Of a DNA stretch of 64,000 nucleotides, positions 7,961-64,000 are shown in pieces. Under the pieces are notes generated by a model. That model did no database searches. It was not told where the DNA came from and was given only the letters and a program-made list of their open reading frames with translations. Made by a program: the position numbers and the translations under genes. Each line of letters starts with the position of its first letter. Position 1 is the stretch's first letter. The DNA is from Candidatus Latescibacterota bacterium (lineage in GTDB: Bacteria > Latescibacterota > UBA2968 > UBA8231), in the NCBI GenBank assembly GCA_965204725.1, contig OZ242005.1:2976001-3040000 (forward strand). Reading direction: 5' to 3'.

Positions 7961-7987
7961 GGTGAATTCCCCTAGTGATCGGCAAGC

Positions 7988-8024
7988 AAAAGCGGCCGAG
8001 AGCCCCGAGCTCCCGACCGCTTTT
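7988..8024 (-). terminator. Probable intrinsic terminator downstream of murA
   Basis: AAAAGCGG...CCGCTTTT inverted repeat with T-tracts on both strands. Confidence 0.5.
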
Positions 8025-8049
8025 AGTCGCCTTGGAGGCGCGACGCGCC

Positions 8050-35378: not shown

Positions 35379-35380
35379 CG

Positions 35381-41503: not shown

Positions 41504-44485
41504 CTATCGGTAGGTCAGTTCAAACACGCTAGCGGCCAGCCAGCGTTTGAACGCTGCGTTGTCCGAGTATTGCTTGTAGAGTTCGGTGTCGTCGGCAAGC
41601 AGGTCGGTGATTGCTTTCTCCAAGGCCCGGTCGTGCTCGATGCGGGTGTTCTGTGCGTCTGCGTGTTGTCGGGCGTTGCGATAGGCAGGGTCCGCCTCGA
41701 CCCGTTGCGGTACGTCCTCGGTGATCATCCGGCGGATGCGGTCGGCATCGGTCCACGGAATGTCGCCGAACAGGTCGTTAAATTCCCGCAGAATGTTGGA
41801 GAGCCGGTCCATCTCAGGCTCAGGTTGGAACCCGCCGCCGCTGGCCGGCACCGGCTCGATTTCGGCGTCCTCGTCGGGCAGCAGGATGTGCATAGTTGCC
41901 TGCTTCTCGGCGCGATAGCTATCCATGTCGATAGCATTCTCAATGCCCAGCGATAGGTCCTCGGCCGCGGGCGTCGGCAGCTTGGGAATGAGCAAGGTCA
42001 GAAAAATGGACAGCTTCTCCCAATCGGCATTTGCGTAGGGCAGCACCTGCGACAGGAAGTTGTATGCGCGGGTGAAGGCTTTGGCTTGGCCCTTGAAATC
42101 GACCTGCCCGTCTTCGTCGAGGTCGCGGCGATAGGTATGCACGCACTCATCCAAGATGGGGTCGAGGGCGGCGCGGTCGTCGCCGTTCAAATAGGCCGCG
42201 ACCAGCGCATCGACTTGCTCGGCGGAATAGACCTGTTGGTCGTCGAGCGTGGACTTGAGATCGTGCAGTTTGTCCGGGTCGGTTTCGTCCGCCAAGATGG
42301 TGGTGCGGTAATACGCGGCAAAGGCGTCTTTGATGGCATCGGCGTCGTTGTGGAAATCGAGCACAAACGTATCGCGCTTGGCGGGATGGGCGCGGTTGAG
42401 GCGCGACAGGGTCTGCACCGCCCGGATGCCGGACAAGACCTTATCGACATACATGGTATGCAGCAGCGGCTCGTCGTAGCCAGTCTGGAACTTGTCCGCA
42501 CAGACGAGAAACCGATAGGGGTCTTGCTGAATTTTGCGGGCGATCTGCGACGACGGAAATCCGTTCAACCGCGCTTCGCTCACCTGCTCGCCGCCGAGTT
42601 CGACCTCGCCGGAAAAGGCCACGATGGCCTTGTGTGGACTGTTGCGCTCGGCGAGATAGTCGCAGATGGCGCGATAGTACGCTATCGCCACCTCAATGCC
42701 GCCGGTGACGACCATGGCCCGCGCCTGTCCGTCGATTTTGCGTGGGGCCAGTACCTGCTCGTGGAAGTGATCGACGATGATCTCGGCTTTGAGGCGGATG
42801 GCCCGGCTGTGGGTCTCCACATAGCGGATGAGCTTTTTGTGCGCCTTGTTGGCGTCGAACTCCGGGTCGTCGACTGTGGTCTTGGCGAGGCGGTAGTAGC
42901 TCGTTACCGGCGTGTAATGCCCGAGCACGTCCAAGATGAACCCCTCTTGGATGGCCTGCTTCATCGCATAGCTGTGGAAGGGCCGATGCCGGACCGCGCC
43001 ATCGGGCTGCGGCGCGGGTGTGCCGAACAACTCCAGCGTCTTGTTCTTGGGCGTGGCGGTGAAGGCGAAGTAGCTGGCGTTGGCGAGCAGACGCCGCTGT
43101 TCGATAATGCGATTGATTTGGTCCTCAAATGTATCGTCCGCGTCCGCGTCATGCTCCCCCAAAACCCGCGCCATGGCCGAGGCCGTGCGCCCGCCTTGGC
43201 TGGAGTGGGCTTCGTCAATGACGATGGCAAAGCGACGGCCTTGATGGTCTTTGTCGATTTCGTCCAAGATGAACGGGAACTTTTGCACGGTAGAGATGAT
43301 GACTTTCTTGCCCTCGCCGATAAAGCGGCGCAAATCGCCGGCATTTTCCGCATGGCCCACGGTTGCCCCCACTTGCGCGAACTGCCGGATGGTGTCGTTG
43401 ATCTGCCGGTCCAAGATAATGCGGTCGGTTACGACGATGATGGAGTCAAAGACCGGCCGGCCGCCCTTTTCCAAGCCGATGAGCCGGTGCGCCAACCACG
43501 CGATGGAGTTGGACTTGCCGCTGCCGGCCGAGTGCTGGATGAGATAGCGTTGCCCAACGCCGTGCTCGGCGACCGAGTCCAACAGTTTCCGCACCACGTC
43601 CAATTGGTGATAGCGCGGCCAGATTTGCGTCTTGGTCTTGCGCCCGGTCTCAGGGGCGGTGGACTCTATCAGCAGGGCGTAGTTTTCCACAATGTCGGTC
43701 AGGCTTCGCCGGGTCAGCACGTCGCGCCACAAATAATCGGTCTTGATGCCGTTGGGGTTGGGCGGGTTACCGGTGCCGTCGTTCCAGCCCTTGTTGAACG
43801 GCAGGAACCACGACGCCTTGCCGTTGAGGTGCGTACAGAACAGCACTTCGAGGTCATCCACGGCGAAGTGGACCATGCAGCGACCGAGGCGGAAGAGCTC
43901 CTCTTTGGGGTCGCGGTCGCGTTTGTATTGTTCGACCGCATCGGCGGCGGTCTGTTTGGTGAGGCTGTTTTTCAACTCAAAGGTCGCCACCGGCAGGCCG
44001 TTGATGAACAGCGCGAGATCGAGGGTCAGCCGCTTGTTGGCGTTGCTGTACGACAATTGGCGCGTGACCGAAAAGCGGTTTTGCTCGTATAGGGCTGCCG
44101 CCTGTGGGTTGCCCGGTGAGGGGGTGCCATACAAGAGCGCGATGGCGTGCGGCCCGTGTTTGACGCCGTTGCGGAGGACTTCGACGATGCCGCGCTTGCC
44201 GACTTCGTTTTTCAGGCGGGCGAGGAACTTGCGGCGCGTCGGGCTGTCCGCGTCCAAAGCCAGCGCGGCGGCCAAGCGCGGCTGTGTGGTCTTGAGGAAG
44301 GCGGTCAACTGGGCTAAGTCTATGCAGTGCTCGCGGTCGTAGTCGGCGGAGTGGCCGTTGAGCCAACCGGCTTCATAGGTGGCCGGGCGTTCCCGTACAT
44401 CAGCGGCATCCGGCGCGTCGGCCCGGTGGGTCAGCAGCGCGCAGATGCGCTGTTCTAGGCCGCGTTCGGTGGTGTCGGTGGTCAT
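41504..44485 (-). CDS. hsdR: Type I R-M restriction subunit R
   Basis: DLALFINGLPVATFELKN nuclease motif, HSAGSGKS, IDEAHSSQ, FTATP, QTGYD, QTLSRLNR. Confidence 0.95.
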   Translation of the reverse strand: MTTDTTERGLEQRICALLTHRADAPDAADVRERPATYEAGWLNGHSADYDREHCIDLAQLTAFLKTTQPRLAAALALDADSPTRRKFLARLKNEVGKRGIVEVLRNGVKHGPHAIALLYGTPSPGNPQAAALYEQNRFSVTRQLSYSNANKRLTLDLALFINGLPVATFELKNSLTKQTAADAVEQYKRDRDPKEELFRLGRCMVHFAVDDLEVLFCTHLNGKASWFLPFNKGWNDGTGNPPNPNGIKTDYLWRDVLTRRSLTDIVENYALLIESTAPETGRKTKTQIWPRYHQLDVVRKLLDSVAEHGVGQRYLIQHSAGSGKSNSIAWLAHRLIGLEKGGRPVFDSIIVVTDRIILDRQINDTIRQFAQVGATVGHAENAGDLRRFIGEGKKVIISTVQKFPFILDEIDKDHQGRRFAIVIDEAHSSQGGRTASAMARVLGEHDADADDTFEDQINRIIEQRRLLANASYFAFTATPKNKTLELFGTPAPQPDGAVRHRPFHSYAMKQAIQEGFILDVLGHYTPVTSYYRLAKTTVDDPEFDANKAHKKLIRYVETHSRAIRLKAEIIVDHFHEQVLAPRKIDGQARAMVVTGGIEVAIAYYRAICDYLAERNSPHKAIVAFSGEVELGGEQVSEARLNGFPSSQIARKIQQDPYRFLVCADKFQTGYDEPLLHTMYVDKVLSGIRAVQTLSRLNRAHPAKRDTFVLDFHNDADAIKDAFAAYYRTTILADETDPDKLHDLKSTLDDQQVYSAEQVDALVAAYLNGDDRAALDPILDECVHTYRRDLDEDGQVDFKGQAKAFTRAYNFLSQVLPYANADWEKLSIFLTLLIPKLPTPAAEDLSLGIENAIDMDSYRAEKQATMHILLPDEDAEIEPVPASGGGFQPEPEMDRLSNILREFNDLFGDIPWTDADRIRRMITEDVPQRVEADPAYRNARQHADAQNTRIEHDRALEKAITDLLADDTELYKQYSDNAAFKRWLAASVFELTYR

Positions 44486-44537
44486 GGACAACTCCAGTCA
44501 AGTACCCGTCAAGTAATATAATTGATGCAGATTGGTG

Positions 44538-44684: not shown

Positions 44685-46367
44685 TTATTCATCAAATATC
44701 TCTTCCGGTTGCGCTTTCGCGGGTATCCATGCAGGTTGGGTACGCGTACCTCGATTGACGATCTGACCGGAGCGACGCAATGCCTGCATTAAATTCTGAA
44801 CCTGCCACCGCTTCTGCACATCCGTCAGTCGGTCGGGCAACTTGGGTATCAGGGCCTGATCGATCTCTTTGCGGCTGACCGGCCCGTGCTCGCGCACCAA
44901 AGCTACGATCAGATCTAAGTAGTACTGCTTGTCGAACCCGCGTTCTCGGATGTGGCGACCGGCCTCGCCCGTCGCCTTGGCGACCAATCCGGCGACCATC
45001 AGGTTGGGATAACGGCCCTCGACAAGGCCGTCGGCCTTCAGATGACGATGCTCTTCCCGGCTGATGGACAGGCCCTTTTGCACCCGGTCGAGGAGCATGG
45101 CTCGGTCGAGGTCCAAATCGGTCCGTTCCATCAAGAGGTGGGTGTAACGCTCGTCGAGGATGCGGCCGTGGAGGCTCACGGCTACGCGGCTCGTCTCCGT
45201 CTCGGTCAAATCGTAGTCCGGCAGTGGGAAGGAACGCTTCCTCTGCGTGTCAAACATGCGCTTGATACCACCGCCCTGCGTGTCAATCAGGTTCAGTTCG
45301 ACCATCGCACGCGCCAAGAACGGGTTGCGGTAGATCGCTTGGGGAGCGTCCTGCCGGATGACCGTTGCGACATCGCCGGGCAGGAAATCACCGACGTTGG
45401 TCATCAGGATGCGGTCGGGGAACTCAACGACGACGATCCGGCCTCGGAGGCGATAGTCTTGGTGCGCGATGCTGTTGTGCAGGGCCTCGCGGATCACCCA
45501 CGGGTCGTACTGGGTGAACTCCTGTGGGAACAGGGTTCCGTTGGGCAGGGCGCGCACGGTGAGGTTGCGAATGCGTTGCAGCAGGCGATCGCCAGCGAGC
45601 AAGAACGGCGGCTCAATATGCTCGTAATCCAATTCGCGGTTGTGGGCATCTTTGAGCACCCAAGAGATTCGGGCCACTGCCGGCACCAGCAGGGCCGACG
45701 ATTCGGGCTGTCCCAGCAACAGCAGCGCGGCGTTTGTCAGTGCCCCCTGCCATAGCACCCGCGCCTTGTTGAGAAACGTCGTGTCGTCCCACCCCTCAAT
45801 TTCGGCCGCCTGCGACGGATGTCTGACGATGAACTGCTCGCGTGCTTTGGCTATGGCTTCGGGGTCGAGGTCGTCGAGACCCGCTTGTTCGCACACTTCC
45901 GCAGACCAGTCGCTCCCGTGCGTCCAAATCGCCCGCGCTTTCTCGGGATGATTGCTGAGTTTGGTTTTGCTGGTGCCGACCCGAATGTACGCCGTTCCGT
46001 AAAAATTGACCGGCTGATCCCGCGCCGGACCGACCTCAAAGACGACGACCCGTCCGGCTGGGTAATCGACGATACGTAGCTCGAATCCCGTATTGGGATG
46101 CAGGCCGGCCGCAAGCCACAGCAGCAGGTCTTGGTTGCCCTTCGCCTTGGTGTTGCGGGGATCAAAATCTGTGCCGACGACTTCGTGTGTCTCGTCGTCA
46201 ATTCCGAAGATCAGATAGCCCGCCGGTTGATCGGCGAGGCAGGCCGAGTTCGCAAGCGCGGACAGATATTCTCCGAGTTGCTCGGGTTCGTAGCGATTGC
46301 GCTTGAACTCCAACCATTCCGTCTCCGTCGGCTGACCGCGCAACTGGTCGATACGTACGGCGTTCAT
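44685..46367 (-). CDS. AlbA_2 (Schlafen-like) plus HATPase_c_4/RecG-C-like domain putative transcriptional regulator
   Basis: ETEWLEFK, YLSALAN, YLIFGIDD, REALHNSIAHQDY, YRNPFLA, IDTQGGGI. Alternative start at 46403 (ATGA overlap). Confidence 0.85.
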   Translation of the reverse strand: MNAVRIDQLRGQPTETEWLEFKRNRYEPEQLGEYLSALANSACLADQPAGYLIFGIDDETHEVVGTDFDPRNTKAKGNQDLLLWLAAGLHPNTGFELRIVDYPAGRVVVFEVGPARDQPVNFYGTAYIRVGTSKTKLSNHPEKARAIWTHGSDWSAEVCEQAGLDDLDPEAIAKAREQFIVRHPSQAAEIEGWDDTTFLNKARVLWQGALTNAALLLLGQPESSALLVPAVARISWVLKDAHNRELDYEHIEPPFLLAGDRLLQRIRNLTVRALPNGTLFPQEFTQYDPWVIREALHNSIAHQDYRLRGRIVVVEFPDRILMTNVGDFLPGDVATVIRQDAPQAIYRNPFLARAMVELNLIDTQGGGIKRMFDTQRKRSFPLPDYDLTETETSRVAVSLHGRILDERYTHLLMERTDLDLDRAMLLDRVQKGLSISREEHRHLKADGLVEGRYPNLMVAGLVAKATGEAGRHIRERGFDKQYYLDLIVALVREHGPVSRKEIDQALIPKLPDRLTDVQKRWQVQNLMQALRRSGQIVNRGTRTQPAWIPAKAQPEEIFDE

Positions 46368-46399
46368 GTCGCGGCTACCTTTGAAAGCTATTGCGGCGG

Positions 46400-47458
46400 T
46401 CATGGGGTATGGGGTGAGCGGAGGTCCTCTATCCAGTTCTTCTCGGCGAGCACATTGAGGGCAATGTCGAGTTGTCGGGGAGTGAACTGTCTCTTTCGCT
46501 CGTTCCACATATATGTTCGCTCGGCGACCTCGGCAAGGGTCGATGCCTGCTCTTCGCGGACGACCCAATGGACGGTGGCCAGCAATTCCAAGCCAAAGGA
46601 CGACTCGAATCCCTCGACGAGGGCGGCCACCCTTTCAAAGCGGGCGGGCGTTTGGGGCGCGTCCGCGAGAAAGGTGTGTGCATCCTCAAGCGCACCCGGT
46701 ACGAGTTCCAATTCTTTGTGGGGTGCATCGCCTCCGTCTGCGTAACCGGACACAAAGTGCCCTTCAATGGCATGCAAGACGTGCCGGAGGTTTTCGGCGT
46801 AAGGTCCGTAAGGACCTTTGGCGAATCGCAGTCTCAACGGCTCGCCAGCAGTCTGCATGAAGTACATGAGCTTGTGTACTTCCAGCAGGGTAATGAATGG
46901 ATCCAGCAGACCGCGTAGGTAGCGGTCCATTAGCCCGATAAGCGCGGCCCGTCCTGCTGTCATTTCCGGGACCTCGCGCGAACGATTGGCCCTTTGATCT
47001 ACTGGGCCGCTAGGCTCAAATACGACGACCTTCACATCGTCAAATTTCTCCAAAGCCGCCTGCACACGCCTGCGTACTTCCGGCCACTCCAAGCCGCCTA
47101 GTCCGCTGCCAAGCGGGGGGATGGCAATGGAGCGGATGCCCCGCGTTCGTATTTCCGTTGCGAGCGATACCAAGCCGGCTTCGATGTCCTCCATGCGGCT
47201 TTTGCCCCGCCAGTGCCGTTTGGTGGGAAAGTTGATGATGTAATGGGGATTGGTAAGTTGCCCGGTCTCAAAGACGAACACCTGTCCCGGCCGCATTTCG
47301 TCGCGCTTACACCGGGTGGCATAGGCTTTGAAATTTTCGGGAAAGGCTCGCTTGAACTGTAGCGCGATGCCGCGCCCCATGACCCCGACGCAGTTGACGG
47401 TGTTGACCAGAGCTTCGGCATCTTCCGCGAGGATGTCGCCGGTCTTGTATTTGATCAT
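46400..47458 (-). CDS. darG: Macrodomain ADP-ribosylglycohydrolase antitoxin DarG
   Basis: GDIL, ALVNTVNCVGVMGRGIALQFK, INFPTKRHW, IPPLGSGLGGL; C-terminal KLMYF, YGPY, LELLATVHW. Confidence 0.93.
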   Translation of the reverse strand: MIKYKTGDILAEDAEALVNTVNCVGVMGRGIALQFKRAFPENFKAYATRCKRDEMRPGQVFVFETGQLTNPHYIINFPTKRHWRGKSRMEDIEAGLVSLATEIRTRGIRSIAIPPLGSGLGGLEWPEVRRRVQAALEKFDDVKVVVFEPSGPVDQRANRSREVPEMTAGRAALIGLMDRYLRGLLDPFITLLEVHKLMYFMQTAGEPLRLRFAKGPYGPYAENLRHVLHAIEGHFVSGYADGGDAPHKELELVPGALEDAHTFLADAPQTPARFERVAALVEGFESSFGLELLATVHWVVREEQASTLAEVAERTYMWNERKRQFTPRQLDIALNVLAEKNWIEDLRSPHTP

Positions 47459-47477
47459 GGTTGTTCTCCTTTTGCGG

Positions 47478-48116
47478 TCAATAATACCAATCGGGCTTGA
47501 TTTCGACGAGTGGTTTATGGGCGGCGGTCCCAAGACCCGCCATGACCTGTTGATAAACCCGTTGCGACAGGACGCCGATGCGCGAGATCAGTGCCCAAGG
47601 AAATAGTTGCTCAATTAAAAATTCTGCCTGTTTGCCTTCCTTACACTGCCGCCAGTCGGTGGCTTGCACTGCATTCCAGTTGATTTCGTCCAACTGCTTC
47701 AAGTCGCACAGGTCCTCAAAGTAAGAGGTGCCAGCATTCGAAAGCGTAAATGCCCAACGCTTACCATGTTTCTTTGCCCAAGCAACGGTTTGATACAAGT
47801 CTGCCTCCAGATGGACGATAGGGCCTTGCCCGCCGCAATAGGTCAATTCTGGGTGGTTCCTTTGGGAAATCACGTAGAGCATAATAGAGCGCGGACAGAA
47901 GTAGAATGGCACACAGTCGCCTACGCACAGGTCTGGATGACTGCTCAAAGGATTCGTGAGGCGGCGTTGCTTGATGTTGTACATGCCAATCGTGGTGCCG
48001 GGAGGTTGGCGTCTGAGTATCTCCGCGTCGCACCAGATATAGTTGTCTGCAATAATGGATTTGAGCCGGTCCACATGAACAATATGGTATATCTTTGGCT
48101 GACGGGGCACCTGCAT
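47478..48116 (-). CDS. darT: DNA ADP-ribosyltransferase toxin DarT (DUF4433)
   Basis: IYHIVHVDRL, VPFYFCPRSIMLY, FTLSNA, KQAEFL (catalytic Glu). Upstream of darG. Confidence 0.93.
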   Translation of the reverse strand: MQVPRQPKIYHIVHVDRLKSIIADNYIWCDAEILRRQPPGTTIGMYNIKQRRLTNPLSSHPDLCVGDCVPFYFCPRSIMLYVISQRNHPELTYCGGQGPIVHLEADLYQTVAWAKKHGKRWAFTLSNAGTSYFEDLCDLKQLDEINWNAVQATDWRQCKEGKQAEFLIEQLFPWALISRIGVLSQRVYQQVMAGLGTAAHKPLVEIKPDWYY

Positions 48117-48125
48117 CGTCAAATC

Positions 48126-49481
48126 TCAGTCAGCCGCCTCGCGCACATCCACTTGGCCGGTGACTACATCGGCGATCAGGCGCGTGCGGTATTCGCTCAA
48201 CAATTCGATCTCCCGCCGGGCGCGGGCCATGGCGGCGTCGATGGCGGCGGTCTGTTTGTCCAAATACGCGGCGATGGCGGCTTGCTCGGCGAGGGGTGGA
48301 ATGGGCAAAAGTGCGGATTTGATGGCATGATGAGACAAGCCATAGCGAGTTACCCCGTTGGCCGCTAGGTGAAACTGAGAAGCAATCGCCGAACTCTGTA
48401 AAGAATGAAAAAGATACGCACCGTTGAGCACAGCCCTCAAAGGACGAAGCAAGGCCAAATGGTAGCCGCAAACCAAGTCTTTAGCCGAATACTCAACGAA
48501 GGCAGGCACCCCAATGTCGTTCCATACTTCCGAATCTTTGGTAATCAGAACGTCGCCGAGTTCTAACCGAAAGCGAGCCATTTCGTCCGCCTTAGCCGTG
48601 GCTCGCATAAACGGCACACTCTCGGTAATGCGGTCGTTTTTGTACACGTCAACATAATTGCAAAGTCGGACGGGAAGTTCGTCGTCTTTGCTATGTTTAT
48701 CAACGTTACTCACTCGCATATTGACCGCGTGTCGCAGCCGCCGCACTTCCCAATGTGCGGGCACATCGCCTAGCCACTCGACGCCAGAGGGCTTGAGGGG
48801 CACATCCGGGTCAAGTCCGCGTGTGACCGCCTCGTGGATAACGGCCTGCCGATACTCTTTGAGCAACTCGATGAGCCGTTCCCTGCTGCGGAGGTAGCGG
48901 CGGATGCGTCCGTCGGTGTGGTCGAGGTAGCGGACGATGGCGGCTTGTTCGGCGAGAGGTGGGACAGGGAGTGGGTAGTTGGCCACGAATGCCTGCGGTA
49001 CGCGTTGTTGACCGGCTGCACCCGTCATCGCCTCAGCACCGGAATGTCGAAATGGTGCAAGAGTGGTCAGGCGGTACAGAAACTGTGAGGAGATAGACGA
49101 TCCCGCTCGTAAGACGTGAAATTCCGTTGAACCGAAACCGATTTCCGTAGATAAGGCGCGAAGACACGCGCCCTTGCCATTCTCAAAGCACGGGGTGATT
49201 TTGGCAACAAGAACATCGTCTCGGCGGAAATAAGTAAAGCCGTTCCAAACGTCAGAAGCAGAGACCATTTTCTCATCTATTTCCCCATCGGTCCCTACTC
49301 GCTCCATGGGAAGAAACGTCACCGGCGTATCTGCTGTAAGGAATGTACGCGCTTCGGTCCTGCTCGGGTTCAATGAGGCGACCCACTTCAACCGCCGCAC
49401 CTCCCAATGCGCCGGCACTTCGCCAAGCCACTTGACGCCGGAGGGCTTGTAGGATGGGTAGGGTTTCAGGTTCGTAGTCAC
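48126..49481 (-). CDS. hsdS: Type I restriction-modification specificity subunit (copy 2)
   Basis: Same conserved blocks as copy 1. Different N-terminal TRD (AKITPCFENGK, GSTEFHVLR, GAAGQQRVP). Confidence 0.93.
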   Translation of the reverse strand: MTTNLKPYPSYKPSGVKWLGEVPAHWEVRRLKWVASLNPSRTEARTFLTADTPVTFLPMERVGTDGEIDEKMVSASDVWNGFTYFRRDDVLVAKITPCFENGKGACLRALSTEIGFGSTEFHVLRAGSSISSQFLYRLTTLAPFRHSGAEAMTGAAGQQRVPQAFVANYPLPVPPLAEQAAIVRYLDHTDGRIRRYLRSRERLIELLKEYRQAVIHEAVTRGLDPDVPLKPSGVEWLGDVPAHWEVRRLRHAVNMRVSNVDKHSKDDELPVRLCNYVDVYKNDRITESVPFMRATAKADEMARFRLELGDVLITKDSEVWNDIGVPAFVEYSAKDLVCGYHLALLRPLRAVLNGAYLFHSLQSSAIASQFHLAANGVTRYGLSHHAIKSALLPIPPLAEQAAIAAYLDKQTAAIDAAMARARREIELLSEYRTRLIADVVTGQVDVREAAD

Positions 49482-49696: not shown

Positions 49697-50617
49697 TCAG
49701 TCAAAGGATAAATCGTCAGCTATATCTTCAACTGTCTTTCGGTGCGCTTCTGATTGCTGGAGGCGCCTTTCGCTTTCCCTACGCTTGTGTTCGAGGCTGT
49801 TGGCCTCCTCCACGTTCGCTCTATCAACACATAGCATCAGTGTCTTGCGATGATACTTCTTAACTTCTTCGATTGTAGTCCCATCTAGTACGATCTTCGC
49901 GCCGGAAACTCTGGCAATGCCTGGACGATGCATAGAGGTGAAACTTGGGGGGGAATTCCAAGTTTGCACAAAGATACCAGACCATAGGGATGAAGGTTCC
50001 CGATTAAGTCTGAAAGGTACGGTGTAAAGAGCGGAGCCCGGTGTACCATCCAGTGTCGGTTCTGTAACTTCATCAACGATGACATCAACAATTTTAATCG
50101 GTTCGTCCGACGGTGATTCCTCCATAGGCTCCGAGTAGGCGGGCCGAGACGAGGTTTGAAGTGGCGGAGCGACAGGTCTTTCCCCTAGTAGCGTAACTAT
50201 AAGATCAGGATAGTTTTTCTTGTATTGTTCCGGCGTACTCAAATCAATATAGCATTTCCCTTTCAGCCATGATGGGGCTGAATCTTTCCACTTATCACGG
50301 GCAAGAATTGGGATGAACTTACGGTGATTGCTTTGATTAAGCACTTCACTAGTCATGATATCTCCCTCATATCCAACACCACCCCGTCTTTCGTCTGACT
50401 TTATCCGATAGTTGGGCGTACAGATGATCAAAACATAATCATTTTCTCGTATCTCTTTTTCCATGAAGGCTGGGAATTGATCGCCAGGAGCAGTATGCCA
50501 CTGATCTAGAATCGTCTCGACTCCATCGGCGCGAAGTTTGGTCGCCAAGTCTGCAACCCACTTCTTGTGAGAATCACCATCCCATGAATAAGATATGAAG
50601 GCTTTTGGAGCACCCAT
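49697..50617 (-). CDS. SEFIR/TIR-domain protein with an uncharacterised C-terminal domain
   Basis: KAFISYSWD...HKKWVADLA.KLR.DGV..ILDQW, VLIICTPNY, GGVGYE. Confidence 0.87.
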   Translation of the reverse strand: MGAPKAFISYSWDGDSHKKWVADLATKLRADGVETILDQWHTAPGDQFPAFMEKEIRENDYVLIICTPNYRIKSDERRGGVGYEGDIMTSEVLNQSNHRKFIPILARDKWKDSAPSWLKGKCYIDLSTPEQYKKNYPDLIVTLLGERPVAPPLQTSSRPAYSEPMEESPSDEPIKIVDVIVDEVTEPTLDGTPGSALYTVPFRLNREPSSLWSGIFVQTWNSPPSFTSMHRPGIARVSGAKIVLDGTTIEEVKKYHRKTLMLCVDRANVEEANSLEHKRRESERRLQQSEAHRKTVEDIADDLSFD

Positions 50618-50691
50618 GAGTTGTTATTCCTTCTCTCAATGCTAATTTCAAATGAATTACTTAAATAAAAAAAGATTGCATAGCCTAAGAA

Positions 50692-52164
50692 TCAAGACCT
50701 CCGAAATATCCTATCGAAAAGCTTGACGACATAACGCCAAATCCCACGCCATATAGATTGCGGCGGCTCCGTGTATTTTTCCTCTACCAAATAGGGTGGG
50801 TTTTCCTCATCCCCCTGTGCGCGACGCTGACGGAAAGAGCAATAGGGATGGCATTCGTCATTGATAATCCGCGTCTCGGCGGTCACAAATTGGTAGTCCT
50901 GTTGCCGCACTAACGGCCACCACTCCTCGGCGAGCAGGTAGCGAAGCATCAAATTCACCTCCATCCCGGCAACGCCCACGCTGAAAGGAAATACATTTTG
51001 ATTGCCGACCCGCTCTTCAGGCGGCAAGTTGTTGACGTAAGACGGATCATCGAGTGACCCGTCCAATTCCACAACCACCATACTCGAATTGTATTGTTTG
51101 CTGCAACGCAGACACTGATGATAGGGCGTAACGAGGTGTGTGCGCCAATGCGCTGAAAACAGACTGTCTTTGCGGCGGTCTGTTTCCACTGCGATCCCGC
51201 CATCAATAACCGGAATCAAATGCGCTTGTGCGAGATAGTTTAAGACATCGCGGGCAACTGGCCGGTCAACACAACTAAAAAGAAGATCGCAATCCAACGC
51301 GGCCTTGTAAGCCTCGCTGTTGTGAACCGAAACCGGCAAAGCCGTTATTTGGATGCTTTCAGCCGTCGCATTGCGCCGCATCGCTCGGGCTGCCAAATCG
51401 ACTTTTAATTCACCGATGTCGTGTACTGTTCCGTAGAGCAAGCGGTCGAGATTGTGCTCCTCAACTTTATCGGGGTCGATCAGAGTAACTTGTGCGATTC
51501 CAATTCGAGCCATGGCCTCGGCGACGATGCACCCGACGCTGCCAAGTCCGACAATGCCGATCTTCAAACGTGAGATCGTATTCTGCGATTCGCGCCCCCA
51601 CGTATCAAAAGTGCGCCTGAGTATATCCCTCCGTAGTGGGGGCGGCGCAATGTCGTCGTTAAAATAAATTTTGTAGGACTGCGGCCCGACAACGCGGACC
51701 TTCTCGCACCAATGGCGACGCATCTCCCCGCCATCTCTCTCCCAAAAACGCGCACTCCAGCAACCGTCGGTCCCGATTGTCAGCCCTACCAACGGCAAGC
51801 CGGTCGCTCCCGCCGGATACGCTAGAACATCTCGCTCTGCTTCGACATCGGCAGCACTCATTCCCTGCCATCCATCGCTTGGATGGCTGTGCATAAACGC
51901 CAACCCCGCCCTTTTTTTCAGGGCTATTTTCATCGCCCGTGCGAGGTACGCAGGCTCGAAACTAACGTTGCCGTGCAGCAGTCGCTCGCCTTCTTGGGGT
52001 AGGATGATTTCGTCTATCAGCGCGGTGCGGCGCAGCTTGCCTGTAGAGGGGTGCCACAGAGCAAAGCACAGATCTTCTTGGGGCGTGTCGCGCTTGTAGT
52101 GTTGTAGTAAGTGATCGTTGGAAGTTGAATCCGCCTCTGCGGTGAGAACGGCCTCGACCCTCAT
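50692..52164 (-). CDS. JAB-peptidase / ThiF (E1-like adenylyltransferase) fusion
   Basis: E...HSHP.....MSAAD JAB motif; GIVGLGSVG, DPDKVEEHNLDR, SCVD, CLRC and CHPYC. ATGA overlap with the upstream gene. Confidence 0.88.
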   Translation of the reverse strand: MRVEAVLTAEADSTSNDHLLQHYKRDTPQEDLCFALWHPSTGKLRRTALIDEIILPQEGERLLHGNVSFEPAYLARAMKIALKKRAGLAFMHSHPSDGWQGMSAADVEAERDVLAYPAGATGLPLVGLTIGTDGCWSARFWERDGGEMRRHWCEKVRVVGPQSYKIYFNDDIAPPPLRRDILRRTFDTWGRESQNTISRLKIGIVGLGSVGCIVAEAMARIGIAQVTLIDPDKVEEHNLDRLLYGTVHDIGELKVDLAARAMRRNATAESIQITALPVSVHNSEAYKAALDCDLLFSCVDRPVARDVLNYLAQAHLIPVIDGGIAVETDRRKDSLFSAHWRTHLVTPYHQCLRCSKQYNSSMVVVELDGSLDDPSYVNNLPPEERVGNQNVFPFSVGVAGMEVNLMLRYLLAEEWWPLVRQQDYQFVTAETRIINDECHPYCSFRQRRAQGDEENPPYLVEEKYTEPPQSIWRGIWRYVVKLFDRIFRRS

Positions 52165-52532
52165 ACGTCCTTCCAAATTCGCCGCAAGTGTTCGTTTATG
52201 TAGGCATACATGTGATTTGTCGGTAACTGATCCCATATATCCCCCGGGGGTCTGCTCATTGCGAGCCATTCGCGCCCATTGGCGTTGTATCTTTCAACCA
52301 CGCCGCCTCTCCCGTCGTCAATTGGCGGGGTTATATGGATCCAGTGGGGAGGGTAGTCAGGATACCCAGTCTCTTGAAAGCTGACGCCTACCGCGACTTG
52401 CTCGCCTTTGTGAGAGCCGGTTTCAATCGTGTAGTCAAACGAAACTACTTTTCCGCGTGGGCTATCAGACCACGATGTTTCATACCCCAAGGCTTCCAAC
52501 TCAGCCTTTATCCGATTGATGTCGTCGGACAT
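52161..52532 (-). CDS. Prokaryotic E2/UBC-like protein lacking cysteine
   Basis: GYPDYPPHWIHI (UBC-like YPxxPP), WLAMSRP, HL near the C-terminus. Lies between the Ubl and JAB-E1 genes. Confidence 0.68.
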   Translation of the reverse strand: MSDDINRIKAELEALGYETSWSDSPRGKVVSFDYTIETGSHKGEQVAVGVSFQETGYPDYPPHWIHITPPIDDGRGGVVERYNANGREWLAMSRPPGDIWDQLPTNHMYAYINEHLRRIWKDV

Positions 52533-52542
52533 TCTTCTTTGC

Positions 52543-52779
52543 CTATGCTACTGGCGTGGGCTTATTGGGAATCGTAATGAATAGGTTATCCTCCTCCAGA
52601 TCGACCCAGTCACCCCAGCCATACTGCCCTTTGGCACCCTGCAGAAGGTAATCCTTCAGCCTACCGGGGATGGCTCCATTCTTTTCAGCGAGCTCCAGAA
52701 TATCGTGGGCGACGACTCCTATATACGACGTGGTCATTTCAATGCCGTTTACTTTGAGCGTGAATTCTTTTTCAGCCAT
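52543..52779 (-). CDS. Small ubiquitin-like (beta-grasp, multi-ubiquitin-type) protein
   Basis: 78 aa, FTLKVNG...DILELA...DYLL...VDL....FIT pattern, flexible PNKPTPVA tail. RBS AGGAGG. First gene of the E2/E1/JAB operon. Confidence 0.68.
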   Translation of the reverse strand: MAEKEFTLKVNGIEMTTSYIGVVAHDILELAEKNGAIPGRLKDYLLQGAKGQYGWGDWVDLEEDNLFITIPNKPTPVA

Positions 52780-52810
52780 TTTGGGCCTCCTGACGTTAGT
52801 TATCTCAGAC

Positions 52811-52858
52811 AGTAACACTCAGTACTGTACTGTAACAGATACTATACTAGAGTGTCAA
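52811..52858 (-). promoter_or_regulatory. Sigma70 promoter of the Ubl operon, overlapped by an imperfect inverted repeat
   Basis: Minus strand TTGACA-N18-TACAGT with extended TGn; ACACTC-AGTA...TACT-A-GAGTGT (52815-52855). Confidence 0.6.
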
Positions 52859-52873
52859 GCTCGCCGATCATTC

Positions 52874-53112
52874 GCCATCGGCCCCGATGATCTCCGCGAG
52901 CACCGCTTCATTTTCGCGCTCCAACATTAGGGTGTCGGCGCGGATTCCGCTTCGGGAGCGCAGCGGTTGCGGCTTGTAAAAATGCCGGGATGTCTCTCGA
53001 CCGGGTAGGGGCTGAGGTTGATCTCTGGCGACAGGAATTTCTCAATGAGCGCGCCGAGCACATCGGCGTCGGACAAGCGCGGAATCTAGTTGCGAAACTC
53101 GAAGTTCTTCAA
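52874..53112 (-). pseudogene. hsdM: Internally deleted hsdM remnant
   Basis: 52874-52989 matches hsdM 39384-39499 and 52984-53112 matches hsdM 40998-41126. The pieces are joined at the shared GCCGGG. There is also a CAG>TAG stop. Confidence 0.9.
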
Positions 53113-57397: not shown

Positions 57398-60300
57398 TCA
57401 GCGAAGGAAGAACGTGCCCGAAAGCCGCACCTCGCGGATCTTCCGCGTCTTGTCTCGGATGTGGTCTTTGTCGTTTTCAATGCGAACCCGCCCCTCGCCG
57501 CGAAAGTTTGAACTGAAGTTGTAGGTCATGGTTAGCTGCGTGCGCCAGATGTTGTTTTTGGCGTTGGGGACGCGCTCTTCGTCGCCCGTGGCGATGGAGC
57601 GCACCTCTTCTTCAAACTTCTGTTCCAAGTTGAGCGTGACATCGCTTTTGAGGCGGCCGAGCAAGGGCAGCCGCCGCGGCTTGAGAGTATGCGTGATCTT
57701 GAAGGTGGTGGTCGTGCGCTCGCGGTCGCGGGTGCCGCGCAGGGACTGGGTGCCGTCGCCCTCTGCGGTGGGTTCGTCAAAATCTCGGCTCTCCGAGATG
57801 GAGATCACGCGCTCGATGGTCGTCGTCGGCCCCCAGCGCCAACGACCGTTCCACGACGCCCGGAACTCGGTCTTGGTCTCCTCGGAGAGCAGGTGCCCGG
57901 GCGCGAGGCTGCCCTCGCCCTCGCTGGCCTCCAAGGTCTCGAAACTCGCGTTTACCTGCGCGCTGTTGATCACGCGCTTTATCAAGGGAATTCGGTCGGC
58001 TCGCCCCCAGCTAAGGTTTATGCGCGGGTAGGTCCGCTCGTTGCGCAGCCGCCGGCGCTGCTGCGAGGCACCGCTGCGCTTGGTGGTCTGATCTTTAGAG
58101 TTGACCTTGACGCTAATGCCAAAGGGCAACCGCATCCCCGAGCCGGCCTCAAACGCGTCCGTGTGCAGCCAGTTGTCTTGGTGGGTCAGCCCTTGGGTCA
58201 CTTGCCGCACCCGCAGCGTGTCCTCAAGGCCGAGTTGATAGGCCAGCGAGGGGCGGTGCAGCAAGTTGAAGTGGCGCGAGTTGATGTTGCGCCGCCAACT
58301 GGCATTGACCGGCTCGACGATGCGGCCAGTCCACCCGGCGAGGCGGCGGAACATATTGGGACGTTGCGGCTTGGCTTGGCTTTTCTTCTCCTCGGCTTGG
58401 TCTTCCTTTGGGTTTGCCTCGCCGGCGTTTCGGCCCCGATCATCGCGGCGCGGTGCTTTGCGGCCTTGCCCCGGGGCCTTGCCCAAGGTTTTGAGCAGGG
58501 TCGGGATTTTGAGATTGAGGCGGACGGACAGGTCGTTCTGGCTGCGGATTTCGCGGGTCTCAAACGGCAGGCCGCGGATCGAATCGATTGGGGCTACCCC
58601 GCGCCGCTGCGCCGGGTCGTTCTGCTCCTCGTAATTGGCCTTGAAGGTGTAGTTTTGGTCCAGCCACGAGATCAGGCGCAGCGATAAGCCGAGATCGGCC
58701 GTTTGTCTGCGCCCGACCTCGCGCCCAAAGCTCCGCTTGTCGAGGGCGAATTTTTTTCGCAAGTCGCGGTCGATTTTGAGGTTGTAGTTGGCCGATAGAC
58801 CGGAGAGCGGATTGAGCTTGGAGGCGTAGGTTTCGACGAGCGTAAAGTCCTCTTGCTCGGTCGGCTCGTCGTCGCCGCGGCGCAGCAACCGCGAGATGTT
58901 CCGGCGGCCGTTGAGCGAGTAGGTCAGGCTCGACGGCAGCGGGCGGAACTCCAGCCGCGTCCAGCTCTTGGGCATGAACGTCGGCAGCCAGCCCATGATC
59001 CGCAGCCCCGGTTTGGGCAGCGGCATGCTGTAGTTGAAGCTCATCGTCTGGGCCTCGCGCTCGTTGATCGGGCGCACCGGGTCCGAGCTGTGTTCACGCG
59101 AATGAGACAGCCTCAGGTTCATCTGGTCAAGGGTCCAGCGCAAGAGGAGGTTTTTGCCCTGCCGCCGGCTGATGGATACGTCGTAGAGTTCCTTGGAGCG
59201 CACGGCCTGTTGCGCCAGCTTCTCTTCGGGCGTCAGCTCCACGTCCGAGCCGGGGCCGAAGCGCGGCAAGCTGGTCGTGCGGCTGAGATTTACCTTGAGC
59301 GGGATCAAAAACCCCCAGCTACTCGGCAGGAGCTTTTGCGCGTTGGTGGAGACCGCGAGCGCGGCTTCGCGGTCTGTGCTGTTGCCCCCTTGGCCGGTAA
59401 AGCTGCGGAAGTTCTCCTGCCGCCAGAGCACGTTGCCGCCGAGGTTGGCAAAGTCGGCCAGCTTGGTGTTGAGATGGGCGTATGCGGCCAGCCCGGGGTC
59501 GTTGCGCGCCCCGTCGAGGCGGAGCTCGTCGAGCAAGACCCGGCCGCTGTACGCGCGGTTTTCAGCGCGGTTGCGCAGGCCAATACTCAGTTGTTTGATC
59601 GACTGCATCGACGGGTTGCCGCGCACCCGGTAAATGGCTTCCTCGCCGCTGCGCCGGCCCGGCCGCGCAAAGACTTGGTCGAGGGAAAAGTGCTCGACTT
59701 CGGGGTCGTAACCGGCCGCGTGCAGCGCTTCCAACTCGCGTTGGGCGATCAAGGAATGGCCGTCTAGGGGTGCCCCGTGCGGATCGATCACCCGGTAGGT
59801 GTAGTAGAACTCGCCCGTAGTGGTATCGGCCTGCCCGGATTGCAGCAGGGCCTTGAGCTGGGAGATGACCGGCAGGTCCACATCGACTTGATTGCCCTTC
59901 CAGCCCTTGCGCCCTCCTTCCCACCCCGGGAAGATGGGGCTGATGGTCTCGTAGTAGTTGGTCGAATCCACGCCAAAGCGCACGAAGAGCACCAAGTCGC
60001 TCGAATCGCCGCGGGCGTATTCAATGGTCTCGCTCGAATCGCCATAGACGTACATGCGCAGCCGCTCGTAGTTGGTGTAATTGGCCGGTCGGGTCAAAAT
60101 TCGAGTGGCCGACATCTGGTGGCCAGGCTCTAGGTTTTCGTAGGCCAGCACGAGGGACTGCTCGCGCTCGCGGGTGCGCGACTGCACGTTGCGGCGGATC
60201 TTCACGCCGGGGGGTGGCCGGTAACTCTGGCTCTTGTCGGTGCCAAGGACCGTGACGTCGAGCGCCTCGCGGTCGCCCACCGGGAAGCGCTCGTCGAGCC

Positions 60301-63300
60301 GCACTACGTCGTCCTCCTGCCACTTGTTGCCCACGATCTCCACGAGCGCGATATCGGCCCGCACAGGCTCTTCGGCCCCCGGCTGCGGTGCGCTCGAAAG
60401 CATCAGGCGCACGTATTCGATGCGGGTGGAGTCGGGCAAGCCCACGCGCTCGACGTGGGGGCCGAACAGAGGCACTCGGAACTGACGCCAGCCCTTGTTT
60501 TGGGTGCCGGCGACCTCATAGTGGCTCGAGGCCAGATCGATCTCGTAGTGATAGTAACTGTTGCGCCGGTCTATCACGCCGTTGCCGTTGAGGTCTTCCG
60601 TGTCTGGGCGGTCGCCGCTTTCGAGGTCTTTTTTGTTGTTCTCGGTTCCGTTGATGCGGCTGTAATCGTTCTTGTTGCGCTCGGCGTCGTATTGCCAGTT
60701 GTCCCCTTCGGGGTCGTCGGGCGAGCGGTTGGGGCGCAGGGGATCGGCGTCTGGGTAGAGCGCGGCGAATGCCTGCTTCCGCTCGTCTAGGGAGCGGGTG
60801 GTGTCAAACGCGGCGTCTTGCAGCCGCAAGTAGAAGTTCAACTCGGCCTCGTCGTCGCGGCCATCAATGCCTACGTCCTCTTCCCGCGACACCAACCCAT
60901 CGCCGGCCGCTTGCCCGGGGAAAGGCTCGTCTTCGGTGTCGAGGCGACCGTTGGCGATGTAATCCTCGCTGATTTGGTCGCCCAAGTTCACGTGCAAAGT
61001 GCCCTCCCGGCCCCGTGCCCATACCTCTAGGAACTTGGACTCGGAGAAGTCGTTGACGGCCGAGAAGGCGAAGGAGATGCCCCCCCAAGACTCAGGGGCT
61101 TCGAGGAGCGGCGTCAGCGCCAGCGACAGGATGTCGGTGCGGCGGTTTTGGGCTTCGATTTGCTCTTCTTGGTTGGGCCAAATGTCGGTGCGCAACGCCC
61201 CGTCGTAGGGATTGTACCAGATGAAGGGAGCGCGATTTTCCGCGCCTAAACGCCCGCCTACTGGTGCGCTGGCCGGTGCCCAGCGCGTGCGGTTGACCAC
61301 CAAGGCGGTGGGCTGCTCGCTATCCTCAAAGTCGTCTATGTAGCCGCGCCCCTTGGTGTTGAGATTGGGGCGGCTCTGCGCGATTTCGGCGTCTAAGGTC
61401 ACTTCGGAGGGAACCGCCGTCTTGACCAGCGGCAGCATATCGACGACGCGGGTGAGGACTGGCATCTCGCGCCGGGCGCGCAAGTCGAAGTTCCATATTA
61501 CCGTGCGCTTAGGCTCGTTGCCCACCCGCACCCGCCGATCGCTCGACCGCTCGTTGTTGTAAATCATGGTGCTGCCCACTCGCCCGTCGCCCCCCCAGAA
61601 CTCGTACTCGGTGCGCAAGCCCAACAGCGTTTTTTGCTGACTGCCGATATTGAAGAGGTCCTCGGACTCAAAGGAGATTTCCAAGTCGGCACCGGGGTCG
61701 GCCACTTCCTGAGCAATCGAGCCGACAAACGTCACGCTGCCCGTGAAATCGACTCGGTAGTCGGTGTCGCGCGCCAAGGGGCGGCCATTTAGCTGGACTT
61801 CTACGGTCTCGGGGCGGACGCTGCCGAAGAGCCCGCCCAGCCGAATGCGCTGCTCTGAGGAGGCGGCGCGGACGAGGATTTTGTAGCGGCTGGCCTCAAT
61901 TTGGGCGCGCTGCTGCTGCTCGTCGTAGATGGCGGCGACGGGTTCGTCGAGCTGGCCTTGGTAGGTGCTGGAGCGCGGATCAAAGGGCCGCTGGTCGGGA
62001 AAAATCAAGTGCCCGCGGATGTCGTCCAGCCCGATGTAATCGGAGTCGATGACGCGGTCGGGGGCGCTGCCGGGGTCTTTGCCGCGCTCGTCCAAGCCCA
62101 AAACCTGCAAATAAGAGCGGCCCTTTTGCGAAAGTTGGTCCTCTTGGCCGGGCACTTCCTTGGCAATATCGACCTGCAAAGTCTTGGGGTCGAAGCGGCG
62201 GCCGGTGGAGAAACCAGAGGCAATGCGATACACGTTTTTCCACTCTAGGTTCCAAGTGGGAAAACCCGGGCGGGCGTTGCGGGCCTTGATCAGCTTTAGG
62301 TGCAAGGAGTCGGATTCGGCGCTGGTTTTGAGCCGAGCCGTCTCGTGTTGGAGGGCGTCGTCGAAGTCCGGTGCCCGGGTTTTGAAATACACGGCCATGG
62401 CATGGGAGTTGGATACGGGTCTGTTGAGGATGATGTAACCCGCCTCCGCCACGATTGCATAGTCGTCGTCCGGGTCGAGCCGGTGCCAAGTCCCCTCCTC
62501 AAAGCAGCCGCTGTTGCGCAAGCGCTGGCCCGCTGCGTCAAAGCACTCAACGGTCGAGAGGGAATCGGACGGATCGACCCAAGCCGTGCCGGGCTTGGCG
62601 AACAGCTCGGCGTCATTCTGGGTATTGAAGTCGTTGATATAGACTTCGAGGCGGCTAATATCGACGAAGTTTTCCGCACCAAACTGCGCTCCGTCCAACA
62701 GCCGGCGGAAGTCGAGGAGGTGAGCGCGGTAGAACTCGTGCAAGAAGAAGTACGTGTTGCGGATGTATTGGTAGTCTTTGAGCTGGAGGGTGTCGATGGC
62801 CGCTCCGCCCTTGAAGGTCTGGCGATTGGACTTGCTCTTTTCGTGGCTGGCCACGGTCGTAAAGGCCAGCGGCCCGATGTGCCCCTTAGCGCGGATGCCG
62901 AAGAGGCCCTTATTCCTCTGCCGGAAGCCGACGAAGCGCGTGTTGGGCAGCTCTAAGGTGGTGTTGCCGGCCTGCACCTCTTGGAATATGGAGTCTTCCT
63001 CGCCGTCGTAGTCGAGCTTGATCTGATTGGACAGCTGATCTCCCAAACCGGAGCCAATCGCTGAGCCGAAGTTTTGGGTGTCTTGGTCAATGCGTATGTT
63101 GATCAGTTCGCCGACTTTGCCTTCGACCGTAAAATCGGATTCCTGTTCGATGCCCAGCGAGGGGAACTTCGAGCTGCGCCCAAACGAGGTCTGGACCTCG
63201 CCGTCGGTCCACTCGCTCTTGCCAGAGATGATGATGGTGCGCGAGCCATTGAGCGCCAGACTGGGGCCTCCGTCGCCGATAAAGCGCCGTAGGGGCTTGG

Positions 63301-63730: not shown

Positions 63731-64000
63731 CTCTAATGCACACCTATCGACGTTTATTGGAAGCGACTCAGAAGCCTTCACTTGTGATTCGGCGGCATCA
63801 ATGCGCCGAGCGGCTTCTGCATTAACTAAACGCGATAGGCTGTCTCCAAACCCAACAGGGGGATGCTGCCCAGACGGAACGGGCAACCACCTGAAAACAT
63901 AGCATAGGGCTGCGATTATTTCAAGGAAGCCCTTGCAAAAACCATTCCCGTTGCACGGCGCGGGGCGTACTTTTTGGCGCGGCGATCTAAGTCGTTATAT

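Follow-up and report, generated by a model that had tools for sequence, protein, structure and literature searches.

An alanine-ended ubiquitin-like protein in a candidate Bub-type conjugation operon from Candidatus Latescibacterota

We describe a three-gene operon on a 64,000-nucleotide stretch of DNA from a Candidatus Latescibacterota bacterium (positions 2,976,001 to 3,040,000 of contig OZ242005.1, assembly GCA_965204725.1; hereafter the window) that encodes a ubiquitin-like protein (Ubl) ending in alanine, an E2-like protein free of cysteine, and a fusion of a JAB peptidase domain to an E1 adenylation domain. We propose, with a probability of about 65%, that the operon is a working ubiquitin-like conjugation module and represents a branch of its own, sister to the Type I Bub (6E.1) systems but without BubE, that is apparently undescribed so far. 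The nearest relatives of its three products are, respectively, the Bil/Bub Ubls, BubB and BubCD, which upholds the Bub-like identity put forward in an earlier model-generated note on this DNA (hereafter the original prediction). Ubiquitin-fold modifiers end in glycine almost as a rule; the present family, found in at least nine phyla, instead retains alanine at this end under purifying selection, together with E1 and E2 proteins that lack a catalytic cysteine. The family thereby provides a natural test case for the way in which a side chain at the reactive end is accommodated by E1 adenylation sites, JAB peptidases and oxyester relays. For the operon itself, we infer both conjugation and antiphage action. 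Because the module is mobile and resides in defence islands, in this case a type I restriction-modification (R-M) locus with DarTG, an antiphage or stress role is likely but unproven.

Organization of the operon

The three genes lie on the minus strand and are tightly coupled. The Ubl gene (52543-52779, 78 amino acids) starts at an ATG behind a GGAGG and ends with TAG; a spacer of 10 nucleotides separates it from the E2-like gene (52161-52532, 123 amino acids), whose stop codon overlaps the start of the JAB-E1 gene by 4 nucleotides (ATGA). The longest open reading frame for the fusion (50692-52269) would encode 525 amino acids, but proteins from related loci are 460-493 amino acids long and share a later start, and we therefore adopted the ATG at 52164-52162, which yields a protein of 490 amino acids (50692-52164) from which all residue numbers below are counted. 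Its JAB/JAMM peptidase domain spans residues ~1-170 (51655-52164; the domain border is approximate), and its ThiF-type E1 adenylation domain spans residues ~171-490 (50692-51654). A scan of one genome per species, in which every hit came from a metagenome-assembled genome, identified 37 related loci; the Ubl-E2-JAB/E1 gene order is found in all 37, nearly always with the same ATGA overlap. The layout and coupling described in the original prediction agree with the list of open reading frames and with the DNA itself.

The same prediction placed the operon under its own promoter. A sigma-70-like site is present (TTGACA-18-TACAGT with an upstream TG, 52829-52858, minus strand), recognized by consensus match only, at 10 of 12 positions. 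Promoter-like sites are no more frequent than expected by chance, however, with two in the region against a mean of 3.5 (standard deviation 2.4) in shuffled sequences, so that we regard the promoter as no more than plausible. By eye, an exact TTGACA can be counted in 11 of 33 upstream regions of related loci. An imperfect 14-nucleotide inverted repeat (52801-52841; 79% complementary, with 13 nucleotides between its arms) covers the -10 region and the sequence downstream of it. The repeat is a possible, weak candidate for an operator, weak because the upstream regions of related loci do not appear by eye to conserve it.

The ubiquitin-like protein ends in alanine

The Ubl terminates in PNKPTPVA, with the tail T75-P-V-A78 followed by the TAG stop (Ala78 codon, 52546-52548). 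Its last glycine is G56, which leaves the final 22 residues free of glycine; the open reading frame thus bears out the earlier description of a 78-residue protein with no glycine in its last 20 or more residues. No family in Pfam, PADLOC or NCBIfam matches the protein. We built an AlphaFold2 model from an alignment of related loci (mean predicted local distance difference test score, pLDDT, 83.9), and in Foldseek it is matched best by Citrobacter BubA (9d5a and 9ea8_B, probability 1.00), with other bacterial multi-ubiquitin proteins and ubiquitin also matching at probability 1.00. VIA structural comparison pairs the model with 8u38_A (Z 9.2, root-mean-square deviation 1.8 Å over 67 residues). 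By these models and matches the small protein is, as originally proposed, a beta-grasp protein, nearest to the bacterial multi-ubiquitin (Bil/Bub) Ubls.

To compare tails we used 35 Ubl genes from the window and the related loci, leaving aside L017 (broken frame), L020, L035 and L036 (near-duplicates), L031 (which ends in RVS plus five residues) and L032 (which ends in AQAA). Every one of the 35 carries a T/A-x-V/I-A tail, and the alanine is encoded by all four of its codons (GCA 14, GCG 11, GCC 8, GCT 2). The stop codon follows the alanine directly in 30 genes; the other five run on and diverge from that point, into the E2 in L006, L033 and L034 and into a tail of 3-8 residues in L018 and L037. 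A large protein collection gives the same picture: 90 of 95 clusters of Ubl homologues end in alanine, four have VA plus three residues, and one is aberrant. More distant forms in which Ubl and E2 are fused carry TPVA or TPVS at the junction, and both the fusions and the tails begin directly after VA. The homologues therefore do not end in glycine, and the idea that the window's alanine marks a decayed allele is ruled out: alanine is the norm of this family.

Judging from these alignments, the mature reactive end of the Ubl is most likely Ala78. It is conceivable that the JAB domain instead trims Ala78 so that another residue is activated, much as BilC trims Ala98 of E. aridi BilA, in which the terminal alanine must be removed to expose a conserved glycine (PMC10557695). 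The window Ubl has no such glycine in its glycine-free tail, its family retains the alanine through every available codon, and conservation stops exactly at the alanine, for which reason we reject trimming as very improbable. As a separate observation, two tandem Ubl genes occur in L003 and L005, and two Ubl-E2 pairs in L012.

The JAB-E1 fusion

The fusion protein contains a JAB motif (E30, H92-S-H94-P, S103 and D106) and, in its E1 part, a Rossmann GxGxxG motif with R241, K254 and D300. These are followed by a zinc-type motif, C351-L-R-C354 ... C438-H-P-Y-C442, whose two halves enclose a stretch without cysteine and with the crossover-loop sequence DDPSY376 (Tyr376 codon, 51037-51039). The HSHP..S..D motif, the two zinc motifs and the tyrosine-bearing stretch without cysteine between them were anticipated by the original prediction and are confirmed in the sequence. 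Pfam names ThiF alone (E 5.5e-31), and the best match in the PDB by phmmer is Citrobacter BubCD (9ea4_A, E 5.7e-22), over query residues 51-329 and including the HSHP motif. PADLOC's E1-E2 models reach only the Rossmann part. NCBIfam ThiF and MoeB models score the E1 at 55-73 bits against cut-offs of 159-377; with scores so far below cut-off, and with a TPVA tail in place of Gly-Gly, a sulfur-carrier system of the ThiS/MoaD-ThiF/MoeB kind is ruled out.

An alignment of 38 E1 sequences shows no variation at H92, S93 and H94, in the motifs that bind nucleotide, at the four cysteines of the zinc-type motif, or at Tyr358 and Tyr376, and no cysteine is conserved between C354 and C438 in the family. 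When canonical BubCD is included, in an alignment of 34 rows, Tyr376 is present in all 34, H92 and H94 remain invariant, and E30, S103 and D106 are each conserved in at least 90%. The host genome itself provides a point of reference, since a canonical Type I Bub operon (L039) lies at about 1,854,000-1,868,000 of G000:C1 (~1.86 Mb), some 1.17 Mb from the window. The window's JAB-E1 aligns with the BubCD of that operon at 30% identity (1e-23) through the crossover loop, and places DDPSY376 on EDPTY, consistent with the earlier proposal that this is the Bub-type tyrosine. The E1 C-terminus (residues ~465-490, 50692-50770) resembles an amphipathic helix of basic character with many Trp, Arg and Ile residues; a convergent gene of the DUF2971 family, discussed below, overlaps this stretch in relatives, and a contact with membrane or partner is possible.

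The cysteine-free E2-like protein

The middle protein contains no cysteine and carries the motif W89-x3-S93-R94 (Ser93 codon, 52254-52256; His63 codon, 52344-52346), just as first described. Its AlphaFold2 model, again built from an alignment of related loci, has a pLDDT of 90.9, and a VIA search of all representatives returns Citrobacter BubB as the best match (9eav_D, Z 9.0, root-mean-square deviation 4.0 Å, 115 of 123 residues), followed by many genuine E2 and UEV domains at Z 5-8. Foldseek gives a weaker result, with BubB at rank 3 (E 0.058). Together, the model and its best VIA match support the UBC fold that had been proposed. Searches of PDB sequences with the E2 alone and with an E2 profile gave no meaningful match, and tblastn found none in collections of plasmids and phages. 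The third-ranked ESM Atlas match is a cluster with PF14462 on 45% of its members, which we treat only as a lead.

A profile search over 1.84 billion representatives returned only 105 clusters at E <= 1e-3; of these, 55 span most of the profile, and with the window protein added they form a set of 56 sequences. All 56 have Ser93 and 48 have His63, and no column has cysteine in more than four. Within the 40 E2 sequences from related loci, His63, Ser93, Pro95 and Pro96 are invariant. Ser93 aligns to the serine of WSRH in the canonical BubB of the same genome (BLASTP E 0.11; hhalign probability 6.5%, E 0.0057), in keeping with its proposed role as the Bub-type serine, while the profile alignment puts His63 on the invariant aspartate of LDMFYF in that protein and Pro95 where the Bub histidine stands. 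We infer from these alignments a His63-Ser93 catalytic pair.

The E2-like protein might alternatively be a non-catalytic adaptor of the UEV/RWD kind, leaving the E1 alone to activate the Ubl for direct transfer or for a fate other than conjugation. Iyer et al. 2006 (PMC1779556) read the cysteine-less E2-like domains of their class 6e as inactive, the UEV domains of Tsg101 and Vps23 appear in the VIA fold list at Z 5-6, and Ser93 is not accompanied by a Bub-type histidine at +2. The conservation of Ser93 and His63 speaks against a purely structural role, however, as does the fact that the best structural match, BubB, is likewise cysteine-less and has been shown to be catalytic through the same serine (Ye et al., PMC11601596). 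We consider the adaptor reading unlikely. In L025, L029, L030 and L032, the DUF2971 gene is followed (at about 7670-8130, minus strand) by another E2-like gene that stands alone, with no second Ubl, and in these proteins His66 is replaced by Tyr or Cys.

Proposed mechanism

In our working model for a catalytic cascade, the Ubl would be made with its reactive end, Ala78, already exposed; in relatives whose Ubl is fused to the E2 or extended by a short tail, cleavage by the JAB domain would follow the conserved T-x-V-A. The E1 domain would adenylate the Ala78 carboxylate, and Tyr376 in the cysteine-free crossover loop would accept the Ubl as an oxyester. The Ubl would then be handed to Ser93 of the E2, where the neighbouring base is probably His63, because the +2 histidine of Bub is a proline here and His63 occupies the position of the Bub aspartate. 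A final transfer would place the Ubl on an amino group of the target.

Relationship to known conjugation systems

Type I Bub (6E.1) systems consist of BubA and BubB (often fused), the JAB-E1 fusion BubCD, and BubE, a serine protease of the DUF6527 family (Ye, Gong, Chambers & Corbett 2024, PMC11601596). In these systems the JAB domain cuts the Ubl after a conserved glycine, and the Ubl is carried as an oxyester by a tyrosine in the E1 crossover loop and by an E2 serine with a histidine at +2 and an aspartate (PMC11601596). Comparison with this work and with structures 9ea4, 9ea8, 9eae and 9eav shows how much is shared: a JAB-E1 fusion whose crossover loop lacks cysteine and holds an invariant tyrosine, a cysteine-free UBC-fold E2 whose catalytic position holds an invariant serine, a multi-ubiquitin-type beta-grasp Ubl that may be separate from the E2 or fused to it, and a mobile or defence setting. 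There are differences as well. The Type I Ubl ends in glycine and that of our family in T-x-V-A; E1 identity between the family and BubCD is only 24-30%; the family E1 has a CxxC...CxxxC motif that is absent from the canonical BubCD of the same genome; and in place of BubE/DUF6527 the family mostly has a DUF2971 gene. The sole DUF6527 (PF20137) match in the genome lies ~1.17 Mb away in the canonical operon, and tblastn with this BubE as query gave only chance-level matches in the window and the 37 loci (E 0.2-0.3). The family thus lacks three defining features of Type I Bub, namely the terminal glycine, the Ser-x-His of the E2, and BubE/DUF6527.

The canonical operon of the same genome makes the comparison direct. 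L039 shares the Ubl-E2-JAB/E1 order and also lies beside a type I R-M system. It encodes a multi-domain beta-grasp Ubl ending in glycine, BubCD, DUF6527 and a 552-residue AAA-type ATPase, and its E2 belongs to PF14462 and has an invariant WQRWSRH motif; PF14462 is found on 85 of 85 BubB homologues among the matches listed. Upstream, by our reading of the sequences, is a helix-turn-helix and metalloprotease pair resembling CapH/CapP. The window operon differs from L039 in its Ubl architecture and end, in its E2 family and motif, and in lacking DUF6527 and the upstream pair.

Other conjugation systems fit less well. Type II CBASS (antiphage signalling based on cyclic oligonucleotides) offers a precedent for an alanine end outside the ubiquitin fold: its cGAS proteins end in glycine or alanine, and the alanine-ended protein of E. 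cloacae is conjugated (Jenson et al. 2023, PMC10097602). There, too, an E1 adenylates the glycine or alanine C-terminus and a JAB protein acts on the same end in an antiphage setting, whereas Cap2 is an E2-E1 fusion that works through cysteine thioesters on a substrate that is not a beta-grasp protein (PMC10097602). Type II CBASS is ruled out here, since the E2 and E1 are separate and no CD-NTase family occurs among the neighbours that we scanned with Pfam and PADLOC, as the original prediction had also noted. Bil systems (BilABCD, Types I and II) likewise combine a Ubl of related shape with E2, JAB and E1 in defence islands, but they have a separate JAB, an E1 of IAD-AAD-CYS architecture, a catalytic cysteine in both enzymes and a universally conserved Ubl glycine (Chambers et al., PMC10557695); the fused JAB, the alanine-ended Ubl and the lack of a conserved cysteine in the E2 or the E1 crossover loop rule out Bil. 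Type II Bub (6E.2), with its BubBD E2-E1 fusion and usually no JAB, is ruled out as well, because here the E2 has a gene to itself and a JAB domain is fused to the E1.

The closest earlier description is class 6e of Iyer, Burroughs & Aravind 2006 (PMC1779556), in which a JAB-E1 fusion occurs with an E2/RWD-like domain devoid of cysteine and with a Ubl or polyUbl. Class 6e differs in including the metal-binding protein 'Y', now known as DUF6527, of which the window operon has none, and the text that describes it does not contain the word alanine (PMC1779556). Our literature search, whose scope excluded the journal version and PDF supplement of Ye et al., found no description of a BubE-less, alanine-ended Bub branch, leaving room for the undescribed subtype that was originally suggested. 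The Bub catalogue of Ye et al. is made up of DUF6527-containing operons (PMC11601596, Table S1), and catalogues that rely on this marker overlook the branch. Our findings thus extend the Bub group beyond its DUF6527-based definition.

Several observations weigh against a working Bub-type module. At E 0.01 the E2 has no match in Pfam, and PADLOC and NCBIfam assign it no family either; the Type I Bub E2 belongs to Pfam Prok-E2_E (PF14462), and the family E2 falls outside it, with the low profile-profile probability given above. Where Type I Bub has Ser-x-His plus Asp, residues that Ye et al. found to be required or invariant, the family has Ser-Arg-Pro, with P95 invariant, and a histidine at the aspartate position, and the mapping of E2 residues onto BubB draws on weak sequence signals combined with similarity of fold. 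In one CBASS system, changing the terminal glycine to alanine lowered conjugation (PMC10097602). In their Discussion, Ye et al. report no phage protection for any Bub operon (PMC11601596). Finally, the DUF2971 gene kept by 29 of 37 relatives is missing next to the window operon, which may for that reason be incomplete.

Distribution and selection

The 37 related loci carry the phylum labels Latescibacterota, Chloroflexota, Pseudomonadota, Acidobacteriota, Gemmatimonadota, Binatota, Tectimicrobiota, Spirochaetota and Rhodothermota. Pairwise ratios of nonsynonymous to synonymous substitution rates (dN/dS) between the window and its relatives, of which L003 and L006 are nearest, are 0.06-0.22 for all three genes where dS is unsaturated. 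Relatives of the genome vary in whether they have the system: 8 of 40 give a match to the E2 profile, as do 4 of 24 within the same genus. A quick E1 tree (midpoint-rooted, with L020, L035 and L036 omitted) groups the window with two Latescibacterota loci (SH-aLRT 100) and contains a short-branched crown in which phyla are mixed. The patchy distribution among relatives and the mixing of phyla indicate that the operon is an accessory module that moves horizontally. As a hint about habitat only, public runs labelled as sponge metagenomes contain 40-47% (one study) and 20-22% (another) of sampled words from 50600-52900.

The variable slot after the E1

In 29 of the 37 loci, a fourth gene of ~330 residues directly follows the E1, usually convergent and overlapping its 3' end. 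PF11185 (DUF2971) is matched by 15 of 26 members at E <= 0.01 (best 1.3e-7), the reference member scoring 20.6 bits against a cut-off of 22; a search of the fourth-gene profile against the PDB found no relative. Invariant residues include an HYT motif and E238-x-E240-x-R242. DUF2971 has been assigned to the DarT-like ADP-ribosyltransferases on the basis of an H-Y-ExE pattern (PMC12522546), and by our reading the fourth-gene residues agree with this pattern, which would make the protein ADP-ribosyltransferase-like (ART-like). No DUF2971-like gene is found in the window, nor, with one protein query, in the 94%-complete genome.

The window has a different gene in this position. A bSEFIR/TIR gene (49697-50617, minus strand; PADLOC bSEFIR E 2.7e-69, Pfam TIR_2/SEFIR) occupies the slot directly after the E1. 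DNA homology to L003, the nearest relative at 87-91% identity, breaks off at 50690, 2 nucleotides beyond the stop codon of the E1, and resumes at 49471, at the start of hsdS; the intervening 1.2 kb holds the bSEFIR gene (GC content 0.46-0.47), and L003 has its DUF2971 gene there. In L033-L036 the slot is filled by an AAA_21 ATPase, which in these Rhodothermales belongs to an AAA_21 ATPase pair, and SEFIR/TIR genes lie upstream of the operon in L010 and L013.

These exchanges raise the possibility that the conjugation module serves whichever effector occupies the slot, whether DUF2971/ART-like, bSEFIR or an AAA_21 pair, and that it primes, anchors or restrains this effector as Cap2 and Cap3 act on cGAS. 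Such a role would refine the conjugation model that we favour, and we hold it tentatively, as something short of probable. The frequency and overlapping arrangement of the DUF2971 gene, the exactness of the swap between the E1 stop and the hsdS start, and the recurrence of AAA_21 and SEFIR/TIR genes at other loci all speak for it. On the other hand, PADLOC catalogues bSEFIR as a system of its own, and unrelated systems are packed side by side in defence islands. The DUF2971 gene is also broken or truncated in L010 and L011 and absent from 8 of the 37 loci, where the three-gene core remains intact.

A more far-reaching and somewhat more speculative version combines this idea with the chemistry outlined above. 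The family might constitute a third Bub type, in which a cysteine-free E1-E2 cascade acts on an alanine-ended tag with a relocated His-Ser pair, in which an exchangeable effector slot (mostly a DarT-related, ART-like DUF2971 protein, here SEFIR/TIR) takes the place of BubE, and in which Ubl conjugation directly controls a toxic effector in the manner of cGASylation in CBASS. The link to a DarT-like DUF2971 protein, or to bSEFIR in the window, gives a specific starting point for tracing the biological output of Bub-type systems.

The restriction-modification and defence island setting

The operon lies, as the original prediction stated, inside an R-M locus, whose genes we identified by family scan as hsdS (48126-49481), hsdR (41504-44491) and an intact hsdM (39351-41483), all of type I. 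Upstream of the operon is an hsdM remnant in two pieces (52874-53112, minus strand; 239 nucleotides in all, ~12-13.5 kb from the intact gene), each 93% identical to part of the intact hsdM. The direct repeats thus formed pair 39384-39499 with 52874-52989 (116 nucleotides) and 40998-41126 with 52984-53112 (129 nucleotides), and they enclose the block from Ubl to hsdR, an arrangement suggesting that an island unit underwent duplication and deletion. In L003 and L006, the operon sits between an intact hsdM, directly preceding it, and hsdS, followed by darT-darG.

Such a rearrangement could have left the window copy as an inactive remnant, its DUF2971 partner lost and its upstream hsdM reduced, and both the missing partner and the hsdM repeats fit this history. 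Against this, the three open reading frames of the operon are intact, it retains its Shine-Dalgarno sequence, ATGA coupling and promoter-like site, and the low dN/dS values against L003 and L006 indicate constraint, albeit averaged over the whole divergence. The 8 loci that likewise lack a DUF2971 gene also show that its absence is not peculiar to the window. We therefore think an inactive leftover improbable, and continue to favour a working module.

Several further defence genes share the island. A DarT (47478-48122) and DarG (46400-47533) toxin-antitoxin pair lies within the R-M locus, adjoined by an SLFN/AlbA_2 protein (44685-46568); the same DarTG block follows the operon in L002, L003 and L007. 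We surveyed up to four flanking open reading frames per locus (113 from 33 loci, PADLOC E <= 1e-8) and found a PADLOC match in the flanks of 17 of the 33, including DarTG, type I R-M, pAgo, HerA, IetS and Hma. Farther downstream in the window are other defence-type genes: those at 36128-37699 and 37773-39347 encode AAA/STAND-like ATPases that are paralogues of each other, that at 35381-36073 encodes a TIR_2 protein, and that at 33972-35399 a SLOG-ThsB_TIR protein. A 2162-residue open reading frame occupies 57398-63886 on the minus strand.

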